Shown here: positions 30,093-38,012 of the stretch, piece by piece
Layout: the number at the start of each line of letters is the position of its first letter
How positions within the stretch are numbered: the first letter of the stretch is position 1
Assembly: GCA_045633945.1 (NCBI GenBank)
Contig: JAZQZH010000016.1
Coordinates: 7,620-71,619, forward strand
DNA: 64,000 nt
From: Alphaproteobacteria bacterium
GTDB taxonomy: Bacteria; Pseudomonadota; Alphaproteobacteria; RF32; CAG-239
Reading direction: 5' to 3'
Program-made: the position numbers and the translations under genes
Notes under the pieces: generated by a model
Told to the model about the DNA's origin: nothing
Seen by the model: the letters and a program-made list of their open reading frames with translations, nothing else
The model's database searches: none

Positions 30093-30878
30093 ATGAGTTT
30101 TAAAGATTTAGGATTAAGCAAAAACACAATCCACGCCATTGAAGATTTAGGTTATAAAGAGCCAACAACTGTACAAAAAGATGTTATTCCATCTGTTCTA
30201 GCTGGTAAAGATATATTTATTATAGCCCCATCTGCATGCGGCAAAACATGTTCATACATTTTTCCATTAATTGATATAATTTCACAAAACGAAGGTCAAA
30301 ATATCTTAATCATCACATCTGATGACAAAGAGGCTGTAAATGTTTCTGACAAATTATCTATCTTCAACAAATATCACGAAATAAATAACCGAAAAAATGA
30401 AGATTCAGAAACAGAAGCAAATGTAATTATTGGCGCGCCAAGTTTATTATTAGATAATATTACAGAAGAAAAGATAGATATCAACAATATAAACATTTTG
30501 GTTGTAGACGATATAAATTTAATAAAAAAGAACCGTCAATTAAAAAAATTAGATAAAATCTTAGAAATGCTTCCAGCAAACAAACAAAATATCGTTTTTA
30601 CAACACGCAGATCAAAAGAAACTCAAGACACATTAAATAAAATTCTAAAAACCCCTGCAGAAATCAAAATAGATAAAAATAAAGAAAGTGAAGTAAAAGA
30701 CGTTCAAAACGAACCAACTCTTCCTAAAGATGAAAACAAAAAAAACAAAAGAAACAAAGATAAAACCCCTCTTGATAAAAGAGCTATCGAACTCGCAAAG
30801 AAAAATAAGGCGTTTGGTTTTAACCCACCTCATTTCTTGCTCACAGAGTGTAAGCTCGTTGATGGAGAAGATTTATAA
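30093..30878 (+). CDS. degenerate DEAD-box-like protein: RecA-like domain 1 only, plus a Lys-rich tail
   Basis: Q-motif region is intact (F.DLGL...GYKEPTTVQ). Motif I reads APSACGKT (canonical AxTGSGKT), motif II reads VDDI (DEAD), motif III reads FTT (SAT). No helicase C-terminal domain within 261 aa. Confidence 0.6.
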   Translation: MSFKDLGLSKNTIHAIEDLGYKEPTTVQKDVIPSVLAGKDIFIIAPSACGKTCSYIFPLIDIISQNEGQNILIITSDDKEAVNVSDKLSIFNKYHEINNRKNEDSETEANVIIGAPSLLLDNITEEKIDINNINILVVDDINLIKKNRQLKKLDKILEMLPANKQNIVFTTRRSKETQDTLNKILKTPAEIKIDKNKESEVKDVQNEPTLPKDENKKNKRNKDKTPLDKRAIELAKKNKAFGFNPPHFLLTECKLVDGEDL

Positions 30879-30952: not shown

Positions 30953-31708
30953 ATGGCTGGACACTCCCAATTTAAGAATATTATGTACCGCAAAGGTGCA
31001 CAAGATGCAAAAAAAGCTAGAGTTTTTGCAAAGTTAGCTCGTGAAATTACAGTTGCCGCAAAATCAGGACTTCCAGAGCCTGACAAAAACCCTCGTTTGC
31101 GACTTGCAATCCAGGCTGCACGCGCAGAAAGTATGCCTAAAGACAACATTGAACGCGCTATTGCCAAAGCAACACAAGTTGCAGGCGGTGCTGATTTTAT
31201 CACTATGCGTTACGAAGGTTTTTCAGCAAACAAAGTTGCTGTTATTGTTGAAGCTTTAACAGATAACAAAAACAGAACAGCAAGCAATGTTCGTTCAATT
31301 TTCGGCAAACGTGGCGGAGCAATGGGGGAAACAGGTTCTGTTGCATTTAACTTCGAACGCATCGGATATATTGAATATCCTTTATCAGTTGCAGATGCAG
31401 ATAAAATGTTTGAAGAGGCTTTAGAGGCTGGTGCAAACGAGGTTGTTTCAGAAGATGATATTCACGCTATTGAAACAATTCCGGATGATCTTTCAACTGT
31501 AACAGAATCATTAGAACAAAAATTTGGTACACCATCTGCTTCTCGTCTAGACTGGAAACCAACTGTTAAAACAGATATTACAGATTTAGAAACAGCTAAA
31601 AAATTCTTAGAATTTATTGATGCTTTAGAAGAAGATGAAGATGTACAACATGTATACCACAATGCTGAAATAGCAGAAGATATTTTAGCAGAGTTAGAGG
31701 CTGAATAA
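30953..31708 (+). CDS. yebC: YebC/PmpR-family transcriptional regulator
   Basis: MAGHSQFKNIMYRKG N-terminus is canonical. GGAGA RBS at 30943-30947 favours the ATG at 30953 over the TTG at 30941. Confidence 0.93.
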   Translation: MAGHSQFKNIMYRKGAQDAKKARVFAKLAREITVAAKSGLPEPDKNPRLRLAIQAARAESMPKDNIERAIAKATQVAGGADFITMRYEGFSANKVAVIVEALTDNKNRTASNVRSIFGKRGGAMGETGSVAFNFERIGYIEYPLSVADADKMFEEALEAGANEVVSEDDIHAIETIPDDLSTVTESLEQKFGTPSASRLDWKPTVKTDITDLETAKKFLEFIDALEEDEDVQHVYHNAEIAEDILAELEAE

Positions 31709-32197
31709 ATGAGAATTCTAGGCCTTGACCCAAGTATATCATCAACTGGTTGGGGCATAATAGATGTTGAAGGAAACCGTTTGTCCTACGTGGCAGACGG
31801 TTTTATTCCAACATCTAACAAACTTCCCCTATCAGAGCGGTTGCATATTATATATAACGAACTACAAAAAGTTATAGAACAATATTCTCCAAATGAAGCC
31901 TCTATAGAAATCACTTTTCTAAATTCAAACCCTGAAACTTCATTAAAACTAAGTATGGCTAGAGGTGTAGTTTTTCTTATGCCTGCTCTAAACAATATTC
32001 CCTTATACGAATATGAACCAACCAAAGTAAAAAAAGCCCTAACCGGTGTAGGTAGGGCAGAAAAAACTCAAGTAGAAACAATGGTAAAAATATTGCTCCC
32101 TGGTGCAAAACCCAAAAACAACGATTCATCTGATGCCTTGGCTATCGCCATAACTCATGCAAATTTAAGAAATTCTTTTAATAACAAAACAGTATAA
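31709..32197 (+). CDS. ruvC: crossover junction endodeoxyribonuclease RuvC
   Basis: MRILGLDPS...GWG N-terminus and a C-terminal DSSDALAIAITH motif. Confidence 0.94.
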   Translation: MRILGLDPSISSTGWGIIDVEGNRLSYVADGFIPTSNKLPLSERLHIIYNELQKVIEQYSPNEASIEITFLNSNPETSLKLSMARGVVFLMPALNNIPLYEYEPTKVKKALTGVGRAEKTQVETMVKILLPGAKPKNNDSSDALAIAITHANLRNSFNNKTV

Positions 32198-32226
32198 AAA
32201 AGGAGGCTTTCACCTCCTTTTTTTTA
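32196..32226. terminator. bidirectional terminator between ruvC and the convergent cyclophilin gene
   Basis: AGGAGG-CTTTCA-CCTCCT hairpin flanked by A5 and T8. Confidence 0.7.
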
Positions 32227-32895
32227 CATATCTGCAACAACTTCCATGCTAACTATAATATCTGGATCATATACCATTCCATTATAGCCACCGCCTTTTT
32301 TGATATTATCAACAAATTCCATACCGCTCACAACCTTGCCCCAAACAGTATATTGACCATCCAAGTGAGGAGCATCGTCAAAACAAATAAAGAATTGACT
32401 ATCTGCAGAATTAGGATCCATAGCTCTAGCCATAGAAACAGTACCGCGAGTATGTGGAACAATATTAAATTCAGCTTTTAATTTTTTACCACTTCCACCT
32501 GTACCTGTTCCCAAAGGACAACCTGTTTGAGCCATAAAACCATCAATAACTCTATGGAATTTCAAACCATTATAAAAACCCTCTCTAACCAACTCTTTAA
32601 TTCTAGCAACATGATTAGGTGCTATATCAGGCAACATCTCTATCACAACCTCGCCATCTTTTAACTTTAAAACCAACGCATTTTCTGCGTCTTTTACATT
32701 ATAAGAATGTTTCATTTTCTTACCTCTCGTTTCACTTACTTCCAATTTTTTAACTTCTTCAACACCAATACTTTTAGTATCACTTTTATCCAAAGCTTTT
32801 GTTTCACTTTTAGCTAAAACATTTCCCATCATAAAACCCTTTACAACCAAAATTACTGTTAAAACTAAAACTATATTTAGGAATTTATTTTTCAT
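32224..32895 (-). CDS. cyclophilin-type peptidyl-prolyl isomerase with N-terminal signal/anchor and about 60-aa linker
   Basis: FHRVIDGFMAQTGCP, SMAR and QFFICF cyclophilin motifs. Hydrophobic N-terminus. Overlaps the ATP-grasp gene end by 11 nt. Confidence 0.9.
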   Translation of the reverse strand: MKNKFLNIVLVLTVILVVKGFMMGNVLAKSETKALDKSDTKSIGVEEVKKLEVSETRGKKMKHSYNVKDAENALVLKLKDGEVVIEMLPDIAPNHVARIKELVREGFYNGLKFHRVIDGFMAQTGCPLGTGTGGSGKKLKAEFNIVPHTRGTVSMARAMDPNSADSQFFICFDDAPHLDGQYTVWGKVVSGMEFVDNIKKGGGYNGMVYDPDIIVSMEVVADM

Positions 32896-33829
32896 AATTC
32901 AACACCCAATTAATACGTTCTTCTGCTGTTAAACCTTCAGGATAAGAATCTATTTCTTTAAGTCTATCCCTTAAACCCACTCCATTAGCGATCTGTATAG
33001 CAAGCCCGGGTCTTGCATTTATCTCTAACATCATTGGCCCTCTTTCCTTATCAAGCACAATATCAGCCCCCAAATACCCAAGGCCGGTCATATCGTACGC
33101 CATTGCCCCAATAAGAAGATGTTCTCTCCAAAAAGGAACCTTTAATTCCATAAGATTAGCCCCAGTGTCAGGATGATGTGTAACCTGTTTATTGTGCATA
33201 ACTGCATTCAGCGTTTTACCCGTTTTCACATCTAAACCAACACCAACAGCCCCTTGATGAAGATTAGCTCGCCCACCAGACTCTTTAGTTGCAAGTCTCA
33301 TCATAACCATTGCGGGATACCCTTTATAAACAATAACTCTAACATCTGGCACGCCACGATAACTAAAATCCTTAAAAACTTTACTAAAATTTACTGTTTC
33401 CTCTATCAAAGCAACATCATATTTGCCACCAAGACTAAATAAACCACTTAATGTATTTGATATATGTTTATACACATCATCAAAAGTCAAAACATCACCT
33501 GAAGCATTTATAAATTCATTTTCATTATGTTCTTTTATAACCAAAACACCTTTACCACCACTTCCATGCGCAGGTTTAATTACAAAAGTCTTATATCCTT
33601 TAACAATATTAATAAAGTTTTTTACTTGATACTGATGCTCAATAATACCAATCATTTTTGGAGTATTAATATTTACACTATTAGCTAACCTTTTGGTCTT
33701 CACCTTATCATCAACCAACGTATACAAAGAACGCTTATTCTGTTTCGCAATCACATCATAATTGCGCCTATTCATCCCCAACACACCCTGTTTGCTAAGT
33801 TTTTTTGCTATTTCAAACCAATTAAACAT
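32885..33829 (-). CDS. RimK-related ATP-grasp ligase (alpha-L-glutamate ligase-like family)
   Basis: GVLGMNRRN near the N-terminus, VIKPAHGSGGKGV, and GADIVLD...MLEINARPGL ATP-grasp motifs. The likely start at 33829 forms an ATGTTTAA overlap with the upstream stop. Confidence 0.8.
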   Translation of the reverse strand: MFNWFEIAKKLSKQGVLGMNRRNYDVIAKQNKRSLYTLVDDKVKTKRLANSVNINTPKMIGIIEHQYQVKNFINIVKGYKTFVIKPAHGSGGKGVLVIKEHNENEFINASGDVLTFDDVYKHISNTLSGLFSLGGKYDVALIEETVNFSKVFKDFSYRGVPDVRVIVYKGYPAMVMMRLATKESGGRANLHQGAVGVGLDVKTGKTLNAVMHNKQVTHHPDTGANLMELKVPFWREHLLIGAMAYDMTGLGYLGADIVLDKERGPMMLEINARPGLAIQIANGVGLRDRLKEIDSYPEGLTAEERINWVLNYEK

Positions 33830-35378
33830 TAGCACTTTCCTCGCTTTTAACAAGGGGGGCAAATCTCATAAGTTCGGTCAATCTATAACCAGTATAGGTC
33901 CCCAAAAGCATAACTATAAACATTATCACAATATTAAATTCATTAAACGCAAACATTATATGGCGAACATATTCATCACTAACCACTATATAAGTAATCA
34001 GCGCCGTCAAAACGGTGTTAAAAATCTCTTTAATTGTATTTTTTGCCCCCTCTTCTTCCCATGTAATAGATGCACGCTCAATTATCCATGCTGTAATAAT
34101 TATAGGAAAGAATATTGCTGAACTAATAAGATGACTATCCATCTTGTATCCAACAACAGTAAGCACCTGTATTAACAAAATAACAAAAATCACTACAAAT
34201 GAGATTCTAGGAACAAGCAACAAGTTAAGTCTTGCAACCACTGCTCTCATCAACAGACCAAAAAATATCATTATAGAAAAACACACAACTCCAGGAATAA
34301 GCCCTGTTTTTACAAGCGAAATAGCGAGCAACATTGGTGTAAATGTTCCCATTGTAGAAACACCAATAACATTTCTCATCAACACCACAACAAGTATCGC
34401 CAAAGGAAAAATCATCAACCACTTCAATGTGTTTTGTTCAAATATTGGTAAAGAATATACACTATATTCATAAGGAATAAGCAATTTATGATCTCTAGCT
34501 TTATGTTTAGCCATTTTTTCAGGAGTAGTAACAGACTTCAAAACAGAAAACATTACTTTAGAATCTTCTCCGCCTCGAACATCTAGCAAAGAAACCCCTC
34601 CACGCTGAAATACTACCAAATTTTTAGCAAGCCCAACATTTGCATTATTCAAATCATATATTTTCCACTTACCATCAAAAAACGCTTCTAACATAATATC
34701 AGGTTTTTCTGTTTTTTTACCCTCTTCCAGCTTTATCACCCTAACAATTCTAGCTGGAATTCTTTTATACGCTAAAACATTAATAATTTTTTCCGCAAAT
34801 TCTTTTGGCGTATAATTCAATGGAATAACCAAACTCATAGATGGATTAACCACCTCTTTATTTATAGCTCGAATAACTTTTTGAACCTTATCTCCATCAT
34901 ATAAACCAACCAACTCCCAAAGTTTGCCCATTTGCTCCTTTTCTTCATCCGAAAGTATTGGTCGCTCTATTTTTATTGGCTTCATTTCATCACCCTTAAC
35001 ATCGCTAACATCGTCAAAAATGCTAAAACGATAATAAAGATTTTGCTTTCCTTTTTTATTTTTCCCCCTAAAAACTATTCTACTATTTGTTTTATCGTGC
35101 TCAATAACATATTTTTTTGCAACAACCTCTTCGCTTAATATCTTAAAACTATAATTAGTTGTTGGCACACTTAACCCAACCTCAACATCACCACCTAAAG
35201 CATCAAAAGAAACTTTAGCATCAATAGTCCACACATCTGTAACCGCACGAGGAGAAACAGTAAACCCCCAATACTTTATTTTATAATAACAACAAACAGA
35301 AGCATACAATATAGACAACAAAAGCAATAAAAATAATACTTTTCTAACGCTAAAAATCTTAACAATACTTTTTTTCAT
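33822..35378 (-). CDS. membrane protein: N-terminal anchor, about 300-aa extracytoplasmic (inactive transglutaminase-like) region, and a C-terminal 7TM block
   Basis: 518 aa. One N-terminal helix and a C-terminal ~190 aa made of about 7 hydrophobic helices. The family call comes from architecture and gene context, not from a catalytic motif. Confidence 0.6.
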   Translation of the reverse strand: MKKSIVKIFSVRKVLFLLLLLSILYASVCCYYKIKYWGFTVSPRAVTDVWTIDAKVSFDALGGDVEVGLSVPTTNYSFKILSEEVVAKKYVIEHDKTNSRIVFRGKNKKGKQNLYYRFSIFDDVSDVKGDEMKPIKIERPILSDEEKEQMGKLWELVGLYDGDKVQKVIRAINKEVVNPSMSLVIPLNYTPKEFAEKIINVLAYKRIPARIVRVIKLEEGKKTEKPDIMLEAFFDGKWKIYDLNNANVGLAKNLVVFQRGGVSLLDVRGGEDSKVMFSVLKSVTTPEKMAKHKARDHKLLIPYEYSVYSLPIFEQNTLKWLMIFPLAILVVVLMRNVIGVSTMGTFTPMLLAISLVKTGLIPGVVCFSIMIFFGLLMRAVVARLNLLLVPRISFVVIFVILLIQVLTVVGYKMDSHLISSAIFFPIIITAWIIERASITWEEEGAKNTIKEIFNTVLTALITYIVVSDEYVRHIMFAFNEFNIVIMFIVMLLGTYTGYRLTELMRFAPLVKSEESANV

Positions 35379-35387
35379 TTTAGTTCC

Positions 35388-35924
35388 TTAGTTCAATGTA
35401 TAAGAGGTGGATGTATCAACAATAAATCTACCTGTTAAAATATTACGGCCAATCAACCCCTGATAATCAAATTGACTTCTATCTGCAATAGAGAACATTG
35501 CGCTAAAAATCTCGCCACCCAGTTTAACGTCCATCTTAACTGCTCTACGTCTTTCATCTTCACCCATTCGCCTAACCTTAAAAGAGCGCTCTACTTTCTT
35601 CTCAAAAACATGCTCTTCACCTGTTTTGCGATTTTTCAATTTAAAAGAAACCCATTTTTCTCCATCACGCTCAAAATACTCCACATCATCACAGTCAATA
35701 GACGAGGTTGTAGCGCCCGTATCAATTCTTGCTAAAAAAGGAGTTTTCATTGGTAAAAAATAAATAGGCTCAACCTCTCCAATTATAGGTAGGTGATGAG
35801 CCTTCTCAATAACTATCTCCTTTTTTGTAGTATTAACACTATGAACAACCGCCGGCACAATTACTTGTTTTGTTTGGCAAGCAGAAAGCAAAACAATGGT
35901 CATCAATATAAAAATTTTATGCAT
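35388..35924 (-). CDS. retropepsin-like aspartic protease lipoprotein (PF05618, so-called ATP-dependent zinc protease, RimB-like family)
   Basis: Lipobox LLSAC at residues 12-16. Aspartic-protease motif RIDTGATTSS. 178 aa. Confidence 0.75.
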   Translation of the reverse strand: MHKIFILMTIVLLSACQTKQVIVPAVVHSVNTTKKEIVIEKAHHLPIIGEVEPIYFLPMKTPFLARIDTGATTSSIDCDDVEYFERDGEKWVSFKLKNRKTGEEHVFEKKVERSFKVRRMGEDERRRAVKMDVKLGGEIFSAMFSIADRSQFDYQGLIGRNILTGRFIVDTSTSYTLN

Positions 35925-36076
35925 TTATCTCTAAAACCTTTTAATATTTCACAAATTATTCTGCACAAGAATACTTCTAAAATATATAACAAACATCAAT
36001 AAAATAAAACTAATGCACAATGTTTTTACATTAATATAGAATATTTACAATAAAGCAGTGTATTTAAACCGTGTAT

Positions 36077-37228
36077 TTAAAACATAACAGTAGCTCTTAA
36101 ACTGGTTGCAAAACCATAATTAGATTTTTGATCCAACGCTGGATTAATATAAAGCTGAACATCAGGTGTTATGACAACCATATCCCCAACTCCAAAAGAC
36201 CAATAAGCCTCCACCATTTGCTCTGCGCTATGATATATTTTTTCACCAACTGCTTTTTCATCTATTTTATTATATGCATAAGCAAGCCCTATTTGATCTA
36301 ACTCATTTCTATCAAATGGATTGTTATACACACCACCCAACACCCATGATTGCTTAACCTCTTCTACATCACCACTTGTTTCGTTAACCCTTGCAAAAAC
36401 ACTCAATTTCTCACCAATATCTTGAGATAAATTCAAAGACCAACCATTTGTAGTTTGTTGCTGTTCTTTAACCCAAGGTTGATTATACACCAACAATGAC
36501 GCCACCATATCTCCCAATCCTTTAATTGTTGGGTTATACTCCACATAACCAAATGTAGTATAATGTTTTTCATTAAGATTATTAAACCTAATACTTTGCG
36601 CATCAATATTTGTCCCATCTTGTCCTCCCAAAGCAATGGTCCATTCATCATTAGGATTAATTTGAGCATAAAAACCCAACCCGGCTTGTGTATATGATGC
36701 CGAAGCATTTTGCGACAAGGCCTCATTTAAAAAGTTAATTTGCTGATTTGCATCATAATCCGTTCCATCAAAATTATATAAAGGAAAATGCCCCAAACCG
36801 AGTGTCAGCCAATCATATTTTCCACCAAATTGATATGTATAATAAAGTTCATTAAACTCATTTTCTCCACTTGAATAATCATTTATAGGAGTAACAAAAC
36901 CAGAGTTATTACCTAAATCACTTGCATTATGATTTCCATACCGAATTACCGTATATGCAAAGTTTAATGTACCGACCCCGTTTTTGTTATTAAACATCTC
37001 CCAGCTAAAAGATGGATACAAATATCCTTGAACAGCGTTATTTTTTCCATTAGGTGATGTTCTTTGCTCTAAAATAGAAACATCAACGCTGTAATCAAAA
37101 CCATACTTTTTATTTATCCTATTTTTAAAATCTTGATAATTATCAAAAACTCCTTGTGCCTTTGCGTTTGTGTTAGAAAAGCACATAATTAAGCTAAACA
37201 AAAAAACTATACTTCTTTTCATATTCAC
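36077..37228 (-). CDS. outer-membrane porin, probably the OprB carbohydrate-selective family
   Basis: 383 aa. Signal peptide ending NAKA-Q, aromatic-rich beta strands, C-terminal ...RATVMF. Confidence 0.55.
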   Translation of the reverse strand: MNMKRSIVFLFSLIMCFSNTNAKAQGVFDNYQDFKNRINKKYGFDYSVDVSILEQRTSPNGKNNAVQGYLYPSFSWEMFNNKNGVGTLNFAYTVIRYGNHNASDLGNNSGFVTPINDYSSGENEFNELYYTYQFGGKYDWLTLGLGHFPLYNFDGTDYDANQQINFLNEALSQNASASYTQAGLGFYAQINPNDEWTIALGGQDGTNIDAQSIRFNNLNEKHYTTFGYVEYNPTIKGLGDMVASLLVYNQPWVKEQQQTTNGWSLNLSQDIGEKLSVFARVNETSGDVEEVKQSWVLGGVYNNPFDRNELDQIGLAYAYNKIDEKAVGEKIYHSAEQMVEAYWSFGVGDMVVITPDVQLYINPALDQKSNYGFATSLRATVMF

Positions 37229-37355
37229 CCCTTTTTTATATTAAATCCCACCAAAACATAATATCTAAAAACATGAAAAAAAGGGGGGTATACAAAAAAA
37301 GCTCTTGAATAGTAAAGTTAATTTTTATAATATCTAAACGACAAAGGATTTACAA

Positions 37356-38012
37356 ATGATAGCAAAACTAAAAGGTATTATAGATAACATAGGTGAAGAC
37401 TGCTGTATTATAGATGTAAACGGTGTCGGATACCTAGTTAACACATCTTCTAAAACTCTCTCAAAACTAACTCAGGGAGAACACACTACTTTACTCATAG
37501 AAACAGTAATAAAAGAAGATAGCATAACTTTATTTGGCTTCCAATCCCCTTGGGAAAAAGAATGGTTTAACACTCTTACAAAAATTCAAGGTGTTGGCGG
37601 GAAAGTTTGCTTAGCTATTTTAAGCACTTTAAGTCCTGCGGAGTTATCGCAAGCTGTCTCTGCTCAAGACAAAACCCCTTTCTTAAGAGCATCCGGTGTA
37701 GGTCCTAAATTAGCAACAAGATTGGTAACAGAATTAAAAGATAAAATTGTTACCATTCCTGTTGAATATCTTTCATCAAACAATTTAAACACTGTATTTA
37801 AAGATGAAAAAGAACCAAAACAATTAACTTCAATAATTGAACAACAAAACGATGAAACTTATTCAAAAACAGAAGATCTAACATCTGCCCTAACAAACCT
37901 AGGTTACCAAAAAATTGATGCACACCGAGTTGCTTCAACAGTTTGCCTACACAATAAAGATGCAGATTTTGGAACACTTATTCGTTTAGCTTTAAAAGAA
38001 TTTAATAAATAG
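37356..38012 (+). CDS. ruvA: Holliday junction helicase subunit RuvA
   Basis: MIAKLKG.I......IDVNGVGY N-terminus and a helix-hairpin-helix GVGPKLA motif. Confidence 0.94.

Follow-up and report, generated by a model that had tools for sequence, protein, structure and literature searches.

A gene neighbourhood joining an ATP-grasp protein, a seven-transmembrane (7TM) protein whose transglutaminase domain is inactive and a PF05618 protease was reportedly predicted on computational grounds by Iyer, Abhiman, Burroughs and Aravind in 2009, a study which is also said to be the source of the families PF14397, PF14400 and PF14402. The present text concerns a locus with this same three-family composition, to which only lineage-specific neighbours are added, found in a 64,000-nt stretch of DNA from a gut alphaproteobacterium (contig JAZQZH010000016.1). 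This whole stretch is called here the window, and all coordinates are positions within it. The three genes are followed on the same strand by a gene for a cyclophilin, called here cyp.

In Pseudomonas aeruginosa PA14, the operon rloA-rloB-rloC (PA14_41690/41710/41730) specifies, in this order, a retropepsin-like protease that is secreted, a transglutaminase-7TM protein of the inner membrane whose transglutaminase part is inactive, and an ATP-grasp protein of the cytoplasm (Lormand et al., mBio 2025, PMC12239564). Loss of all three RloA paralogues led to death in low-salt medium (hypo-osmotic lethality) and also disturbed cell shape, biofilm formation and β-lactam tolerance, and these defects were suppressed by deletion of rloB or rloC (PMC12239564). 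In vitro, RloA cuts runs of at least 8 Glu, its basic residues K46, R114 and R137 coordinate poly-Glu, and a poly-α-Glu or polyglutamylated molecule was proposed as its substrate; crystal structures of RloA were published together with the rlo genetics and the poly-Glu cleavage (PMC12239564). The link of Rlo in Pseudomonas to osmotic tolerance, cell shape, biofilm formation and β-lactam sensitivity thus dates only from 2025. The better known RimABK (RimK-RimB) system, which is responsible for polyglutamylation of the S6 protein in Pseudomonas and E. coli, likewise comprises an ATP-grasp ligase and a poly-Glu-cleaving retropepsin of the PF05618 family.

The first three genes of the locus constitute an orthologous rloABC operon, the gut-alphaproteobacterial copy of the Pseudomonas envelope-stress system. 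Our overall reading, to which we attach a probability of about 0.7, is that the window carries this operon together with a cytoplasmic, RpoH-controlled heat-shock cyclophilin gene that has its own promoter, in an old arrangement that is fixed in the clade. A preliminary description of the window, made from the sequence alone, had presented the four genes as an uncharacterised system. This qualification has to be withdrawn, as genes 1-3 match the published rloABC in families, order and overlaps, and the locus is a further, divergent case of a system already described. The three genes are as follows:

35388-35924, minus strand: rloA, 178 aa, lipoprotein retropepsin-like aspartic protease with lipobox LLSA|C16 and D68-T-G-A
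33822-35378, minus strand: rloB, 518 aa, inner-membrane protein with an inactive transglutaminase-like domain and a C-terminal 7-TM block
32885-33829, minus strand: rloC, 314 aa from its ATG (the longest open reading frame, ORF, begins at TTG 33862), cytoplasmic ATP-grasp protein, "alpha-L-glutamate ligase-like"

The ORF and junction check found the four minus-strand ORFs, the 9-nt gap and the 8-nt ATGTTTAA overlap where they had been described. The gap between rloA and rloB reads TAA-GGAACTAAA-ATG and contains a TAAGGA sequence resembling a Shine-Dalgarno (SD) element. The rloB stop and the rloC ATG overlap by the 8 nt ATGTTTAA, in a junction that reads GCTAATGTTTAA with GAGGAAAG lying upstream. 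On the minus strand, the block was found to contain no terminator-like site. The genes rloA, rloB and rloC are tightly coupled.

The family assignments of all four proteins, as first proposed, were borne out by profile matches (PF05618; PF14400 and PF14402; TIGR02291/PF14397; PF00160), and each of the motifs LLSAC, RIDTGATTSS, VIKPAHGSGGKGV and EINARPGL is present in the translations. Among the NCBIfam models, the best matches were named RloA3, RloA2, RloA, RimB and "osmotic stress tolerance membrane protein RloB", and none reached the cut-off; the RloA, RloA2, RloA3 and RloB models are narrow equivalog or exception models that were built on Pseudomonas proteins. It is these model names that led to the work of Lormand et al. 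(PMC12239564). An exact-sequence look-up of the window RloB returned no record, a literature search by Pfam and TIGR family names returned nothing, and a search for UUP1 and related names returned only the mBio 2025 paper and a Shewanella vesicle screen. The preliminary description held that the triad was annotated by family names only, a statement that the genetics, structures and poly-Glu cleavage published in 2025 have overtaken; its remark that no substrate had been defined still holds.

Regarding the protease, RloA matched PF05618 with 101.5 bits in the profile search, and its best NCBIfam match, RloA3, reached 100 bits against a cut-off of 210 (RimB model, 53 against 200 bits). It aligns to the PDB entries 9g59 (E 8e-16) and 9g58 (E 5e-12), which are apparently the two RloA crystal structures of Lormand et al., though the PDB molecule names are silent on this point. 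Through these two structures, residues R66, D68, R126 and R149 of the window protein align with K46, D48, R114 and R137 of the P. aeruginosa protein, the replacement of K46 by Arg being conservative. The DTGA motif is present in 78/78 RloA orthologues of the clade, as is a Cys after the N-terminal hydrophobic segment, and the lipobox pattern fits about 62 of the 78. The export signal of the window protein consists of a hydrophobic N-terminus followed by the lipobox LLSA|C16 and is therefore of the lipoprotein type rather than a plain signal peptide. The Cys-Cys disulfide staple described as conserved among periplasmic RloA orthologues was not found in the mature window protein, whose single Cys besides that of the lipobox is C78, and its flap is shorter than that of the P. 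aeruginosa protein. An rlo protease can thus be a lipoprotein without disulfide staple.

RloB matched PF14400 (82.8 bits) and PF14402 (257 bits), and the NCBIfam RloB model with 255 bits against a cut-off of 900. Hydropathy and charge indicate a positive N-terminus, one TM helix, a loop of 289 residues and a C-terminal multi-TM block, in agreement with the architecture first described for gene 2 (one N-terminal helix, a long loop and a C-terminal block of about 7 TM helices), to which hydropathy and the AF2 model assign a loop of about 290 residues. The periplasmic domain, approximately residues 33-321, contains no Cys anywhere between these positions. It is modelled by AF2 (pLDDT 78.5) as a β-sandwich and a transglutaminase-like domain and matches the transglutaminase-like protein 3isr with an E value of 8e-9 (Foldseek against the PDB). 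The transglutaminase-like domain is predicted from its sequence to be catalytically dead. In the same Foldseek comparison, no structural match in the PDB was found for the 7-TM block. Comparison of 39 diverse homologues over residues 335-506 (33861-34376, minus strand) revealed an unusual number of invariant charged residues in this block, among them R335, R378, R391, E434, R435, E441, R499, E502, R505 and the WEEEG motif, a pattern that would be compatible with a charged ligand being handled there. Judged by a TM count of 1+7 and by the positive-inside rule at the N-terminus, the RloB C-terminus is predicted to be cytoplasmic, and the last 10 residues or so are not conserved.

RloC was assigned to TIGR02291 (429 bits for a cut-off of 314) and PF14397 (298 bits), and hydropathy revealed no TM segment. 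When the 77 clade orthologues were compared with the window protein (78 sequences), K85, the loop G89-G94, R187/N189/H191, D256, E269 and N271 were found to be kept in 94-100% of them. These residues align with the RimK motifs, that is the ATP-binding Lys, the Gly-rich loop, RxNxH and the D/E/N Mg ligands, so that the nucleotide and Mg ligands of the ATP-grasp protein (K85, D256, E269, N271) are intact. RloC is nevertheless not a RimK: it scores 42.7 bits with TIGR00768 against a cut-off of 143, and the alignment begins only at about RimK residue 97 (RloC residue 39), which leaves the N-terminal region of RimK without a counterpart. The locus further differs from RimABK in that its protease is exported instead of cytoplasmic, a membrane-protein gene lies between those of the protease and the ligase, and rimA is absent.

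Compared with P. aeruginosa rloABC, the window therefore has the three families in the same order with overlapping genes, an exported DTGA retropepsin with basic channel residues, an RloB that combines a dead transglutaminase domain and a 7TM block, and a cytoplasmic TIGR02291-type ATP-grasp protein. By contrast, its host is a gut alphaproteobacterium whereas the published work stresses Gammaproteobacteria (PMC12239564), its RloA is a lipoprotein with a shorter flap and no Cys-Cys staple, sequence identity is low, and a porin gene upstream and a cyclophilin gene downstream accompany the operon, which is known here from its sequence. By analogy with Pseudomonas, RloC, acting in the cytoplasm, and RloB would make an acidic poly-α-glutamate-like peptide or adduct; this product would reach the periplasmic side and harm the envelope unless cleaved by the exported RloA, which in the present lineage would be tethered as a lipoprotein. 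The division of the chemistry across the membrane, with a cytoplasmic ligase and a periplasmic protease, had been proposed in the preliminary description and agrees with the published rlo model.

The distribution of the operon was determined by a species-level genome scan that returned 303 relatives, of which the best 80 loci (L001-L080; L-numbers designate the relatives' loci) were analysed and all belong to one clade. The nearest RloB homologues, with 99-50% identity, all come from uncultured gut or rumen metagenome-assembled genomes (MAGs) named "Alphaproteobacteria bacterium", and identity does not exceed 43% beyond the clade. The order rloA-rloB-rloC is displayed by about 75 of the 80 clade loci, those long enough, and tblastn showed rloA, rloB, rloC and cyp to be contiguous on one strand within the clade. 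The rlo operon is thus conserved in an abundant uncultured lineage of gut alphaproteobacteria. A distant set of 7 loci from 6 lineages, including Pelagicoccus mobilis (Verrucomicrobiota), Aestuariirhabdus (Gammaproteobacteria) and a Woeseiaceae MAG, was also inspected. The order PF05618-RloB-ATPgrasp_ST with overlaps of 0-8 nt was found in 6 of these loci, representing 5 lineages, so that co-occurrence of the triad recurs both across the clade and outside it. In Pelagicoccus mobilis (L085, 4426-7537) the whole triad lies outside the Proteobacteria, beside sulfatase and fucosidase genes, and this homologue in Verrucomicrobiota indicates that rlo is more widely distributed than the Gammaproteobacteria stressed in PMC12239564. 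The Woeseiaceae MAG (L087, 5001-7495) carries rloB-rloC without an adjoining rloA; this lineage may encode its protease at another place or do without it. Neither a cyclophilin nor an OprB porin gene was found near the rlo genes in the 7 distant loci, and linkage to a cyclophilin is indeed unusual, as had been suspected.

The fourth gene raises a question of gene boundaries, for which the following features are needed:

32224-32895, minus strand: cyp, longest ORF, 223 aa, cyclophilin-type peptidyl-prolyl isomerase
32224-32829, minus strand: cyp, likely product, 201 aa from M23 (or 202 aa from M22, 32832), predicted to be cytoplasmic
32830-32895, minus strand: 22-codon cyp extension MKNKFLNIVLVLTVILVVKGFM, probably promoter and 5' untranslated region (5'-UTR), not coding
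32875-32903, minus strand: candidate RpoH (σ32)-type promoter of cyp, GTTGAA (32903-32898), N16, CCTAAAT (32881-32875)

The encoded protein is a cyclophilin, with 146.6 bits for PF00160, the catalytic Arg, Phe, Met and Gln, and intact FHRVIDGFMAQTG and SQFFI motifs, of which FHRVIDGFMAQTG is invariant in the clade. It has the PF00160 fold and the Arg/Phe/Met/Gln catalytic motif in common with PpiA (periplasmic) and PpiB (cytoplasmic), but its scores are under both equivalog cut-offs (81 vs approximately 300 bits), and it bears a disordered tail of about 45 residues that is absent from its best structural relatives. This N-terminal tail, rich in Lys, Ser, Thr and Glu, contains K[ST][ED]TK.[LI]-like repeats in all orthologues. 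It corresponds to residues 23-70 of the 223-aa ORF, is followed by SETR[GA]KK[MI]KHSY, includes several positions that are invariant in about 40 species, and is predicted by AF2 to be disordered (pLDDT <50). The matches listed in the cyclophilin protein search were all clade members with at least 75% identity. Two clade cyclophilins, P0430 (339 aa) and P0451 (350 aa), exceed the others by about 130-150 residues and may be fusions or have mis-called starts.

The preliminary description was right about the family of this protein, but the signal or anchor sequence and the 11-nt overlap with rloC that it also reported are doubtful, as both exist only if translation starts at ATG 32895. The 223-aa ORF with its hydrophobic extension MKNKFLNIVLVLTVILVVKGFM is confined to the window and the 7 relatives closest to it. 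About 65 orthologues, approximately 201 aa long, lack any hydrophobic segment and begin 31-72 nt past the rloC stop, at the residue corresponding to window M23; PGAP annotated the 201-aa form even in one member of the subclade (P0402). Variable sites in the extension number 9/5/8 over codon positions 1/2/3, compared to 1/1/7 in the next ten codons, and an SD-like AAAGGG lies 4 nt 5' of ATG 32832. Taking the pattern of variation and the start sites together, the 22-codon extension is probably promoter and 5'-UTR rather than coding sequence.

The promoter scan covered the 80 loci and the window (81 sequences, 2.5 Mb). Around the rloC stop, a motif was found that is unique in the window and invariant in 12 aligned junctions. 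Its form, CTTGAA-N16-CCTA[A/T]AT, occurs strictly at the junction in 46/81 sequences, and 12 more, the window included, carry it there with no more than one mismatch in either element; elsewhere in the 2.5 Mb there is a single strict match. The spacer is 16 nt in every case, though the rloC stop falls at varying places within it. In the window, the -35 element lies within rloC codons, the rloC stop (32887-32885) is within the spacer, and ATG 32895 is situated between -35 and -10. The "MKNKFLNI" that is invariant in the extension coincides with the -10 region read as protein. The RpoH1 consensus of S. meliloti, as quoted in PMC4843759 from Barnett et al. 2012, is CTTGAA-N15-16-CCTATAT, which the junction element matches. 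The clade's dnaK is preceded by the same form in two loci (L034, L056), where CTTGCA-N16-CCTATAT lies 33 nt before the ATG, and in two others (L065, L080) this form, here wholly intergenic, stands 29-32 nt before the cyp ATG. The junction differs from other alphaproteobacterial RpoH promoters in that its -35 is inside the coding end of the upstream gene and in that position 5 of the -10 is usually A, not T.

We consider it likely on these sequence grounds that cyp encodes a cytoplasmic heat-shock cyclophilin with its own promoter. The gene would be transcribed from the RpoH promoter situated in the last rloC codons, with possible read-through from rloABC. Since ATG 32895 lies between -35 and -10, the transcript from this promoter would encode only the short, signal-less protein, and the 223-aa "secreted" form and the 11-nt overlap would arise from this in-frame ATG. 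The earlier proposal of a periplasmic cyclophilin that is translationally coupled to rloC is probably incorrect, because most orthologues have no signal and the gene has its own σ32-type promoter. The "secreted, coupled cyclophilin" is probably an artefact of ORF calling over a heat-shock promoter, and apparent operon partners of this kind need scrutiny at the promoter level. The junction motif was also considered as an anti-SD hairpin that would couple cyp translation to that of rloC. In 7/10 folds the motif does pair with the SD region, but duplex energies within and between loci differ little (-6.3 vs -5.9 kcal/mol, permutation p ~0.05) and the CCT of an RpoH -10 complements any SD, which weakens this possibility, and it was dropped in favour of the promoter.

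Several observations weigh against a short cyclophilin that is independent of Rlo. The extension is open and its ATG conserved in all 8 subclade sequences, and the -35 of the window, GTTGAA, has one mismatch. No terminator-like site was found between rloC and cyp, which makes read-through from rloABC into cyp likely, and a long membrane-anchored or secreted isoform could be produced from such an mRNA. The tail of the protein is both unusual and conserved. Finally, cyp remains beside rloC even where its promoter is intergenic (L065, L080), and a functional tie of cyp to Rlo is possible. This adjacency is stable: cyp lies within 117 nt of the rloC stop in 74/76 clade loci long enough to judge, the two exceptions being L044, where it is 2.8 kb away, and L035, which has no cyp. 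As the gene 3' of cyp belongs to about 37 different families across the clade loci while the porin gene is kept upstream in 57/70, the rloC-cyp pair has been maintained through many rearrangements.

These observations can be brought together in the proposal that the Rlo system of this lineage includes the cyclophilin as a genuine fourth component, which would be transcribed and translated together with RloC. In the cytoplasm the cyclophilin could fold or regulate either RloC or RloB's proline-rich TM loops, or its tail could serve as a docking site or acceptor, with a membrane-anchored or periplasmic isoform as a variant in the subclade of the window. Besides the adjacency to rloC, set against a roughly 37-fold variety of next genes and persisting with a fully intergenic promoter, the lack of a terminator, the conserved repeat-bearing tail and the ORF whose ATG overlaps the rloC stop in the subclade would all be accommodated. 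Nevertheless, we judge this proposal unlikely. No cyclophilin gene stands beside rloABC or rloBC in the 7 loci of 6 distant lineages, nor in Pseudomonas, cyp has a heat-shock-type promoter of its own whose form is shared with dnaK, and duplex covariation, tested as a sign of translational masking, was weak. Moreover, the -35 element inside rloC supplies a non-functional reason for the linkage, as cyp would lose its promoter if it were separated from rloC. An acceptor role for the tail also meets the difficulty that RimK-type ligases extend C-terminal carboxylates, not N-terminal tails. Its most explicit form, in which the Rlo system of the clade recruited a dedicated cyclophilin as a tail-bearing, obligate RloC/RloB partner (regulator, docking factor or acceptor), with a membrane-anchored read-through isoform in the subclade, is in our view slightly less likely again. 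If true, such a cyclophilin would be the first protein partner for an Rlo ligase and would give a handle on Rlo chemistry.

Two further explanations concern the product of the ligase. The preliminary description had suggested that ligase and protease build and trim a tail on the 7TM protein, assisted by a periplasmic cyclophilin and encoded by an accessory insertion. RimK does extend a protein C-terminus that RimB trims, RloB is genetically needed together with RloC, and the block does interrupt the ruvC|ruvA junction. A tail on RloB itself is unlikely, however, because its C-terminus would be cytoplasmic while RloA is exported and its last residues are not conserved; with most cyclophilin orthologues lacking a signal and the evidence on insertion given below, the combined proposal appears improbable. 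Least probable of all is that the locus is of the type producing graspetides, which are RiPPs (ribosomally synthesised and post-translationally modified peptides), the ATP-grasp protein modifying or cyclising a ribosomal peptide such as the cyclophilin tail and the protease maturing it. Residues used in graspetide cross-links (Lys, Thr/Ser and Glu/Asp) are abundant in the tail, and an ATP-grasp protein, a protease and a membrane protein are clustered here. But RloC belongs to TIGR02291/PF14397, which is related to RimK and not to graspetide ligases, and it is on these family grounds that the idea was rejected; in addition, there is no conserved small precursor ORF, the triad is widespread without the cyclophilin tail, and the protease of Pseudomonas has a preference for stretches of 8 or more Glu. 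The reading of an rloABC operon followed by an independently promoted heat-shock cyclophilin gene is therefore retained.

The surroundings of the operon comprise:

36077-37228, minus strand: OprB-family outer-membrane porin, AaxA-like, 383 aa, PF04966 match
35925-36076, minus strand: porin-rloA spacer of 152 nt, presumed site of the rloABC promoter
32196-32223, between the stop codons of cyp and of the convergent ruvC: bidirectional intrinsic terminator with a 12-bp stem and T runs

The block and the porin gene sit between ruvC and ruvA, as was first described, but the view that they are an accessory insertion did not survive comparison. GC content is 0.30-0.40 both inside the block and in its flanks, and neither flanking repeats around the block nor an integrase were found. 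In about 20 of the 30 loci of the close clade (RloB identity of at least 65%), the block is flanked by ruvAB-ybgC on one side and ruvC-yebC on the other, with an additional 1.3-2.7 kb ahead of ruvC in several of them. Most of the remaining loci keep ruvAB-ybgC upstream, and ruvC-yebC was not found downstream in these, and in part of the more distant clade the block also adjoins ruvAB-ybgC. A mobile or accessory island is rejected because the composition is that of the flanks, no repeats flank the block, dozens of species share the fixed arrangement, and every close-clade locus of sufficient length has the block at the same place. The porin-rloABC-cyp arrangement beside ruvAB is old and fixed, and not a recent insertion.

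The porin is a clade-specific neighbour of rloA: in 57 of the 70 loci scored, it is the closest large ORF upstream and has the same orientation. It matches PF04966 with 53.7 bits (cut-off 22.9), and the NCBIfam AaxA model with 277 bits, under the cut-off of 600. It is probably transcribed separately; no terminator-like site was found in the 152-nt spacer that separates it from rloA. Two OprB-type porin genes stand in tandem 5' of rloA in one locus (L033, 3895-6261), and porin and rloA are 1-2.3 kb further apart in L043, L053, L054, L055 and L060. Directly 3' of the porin stop, at 36049-36081, a tandem direct repeat contains two copies of GTTTAAATACA, arranged as GTTTAAATACA(N2-3)GTTTAAATACA, about 125-150 nt 5' of rloA. 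The exact repeat of the window was not found in the clade loci; a looser form is conserved, the close-clade loci (L001-L030) carrying a similar tandem TTTAAATACA..GTTTAAATACA there, and loci of the more distant clade have a TTTACA-type -35 element in its place. This tandem repeat could be a regulator binding site. An Rfam search of 31500-38000 gave no match.

At the other end of the block, the terminator at 32196-32223 is formed by a GC-containing 12-bp stem, AAAAAAGGAGG/CCTCCTTTTTT, with T runs on both sides. Beyond it, a plus-strand ORF of 261 aa (30093-30878) resembles only the N-terminal half of a DEAD-box helicase and ends in a Lys-rich tail; it has an AxxGxGKT-like APSACGKT motif and VVDD in place of DEAD. 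This ORF recurs as a neighbour in several loci (e.g. L006), and a CTTGGA-N16-CCTATCT sequence lies 202 nt upstream of it.

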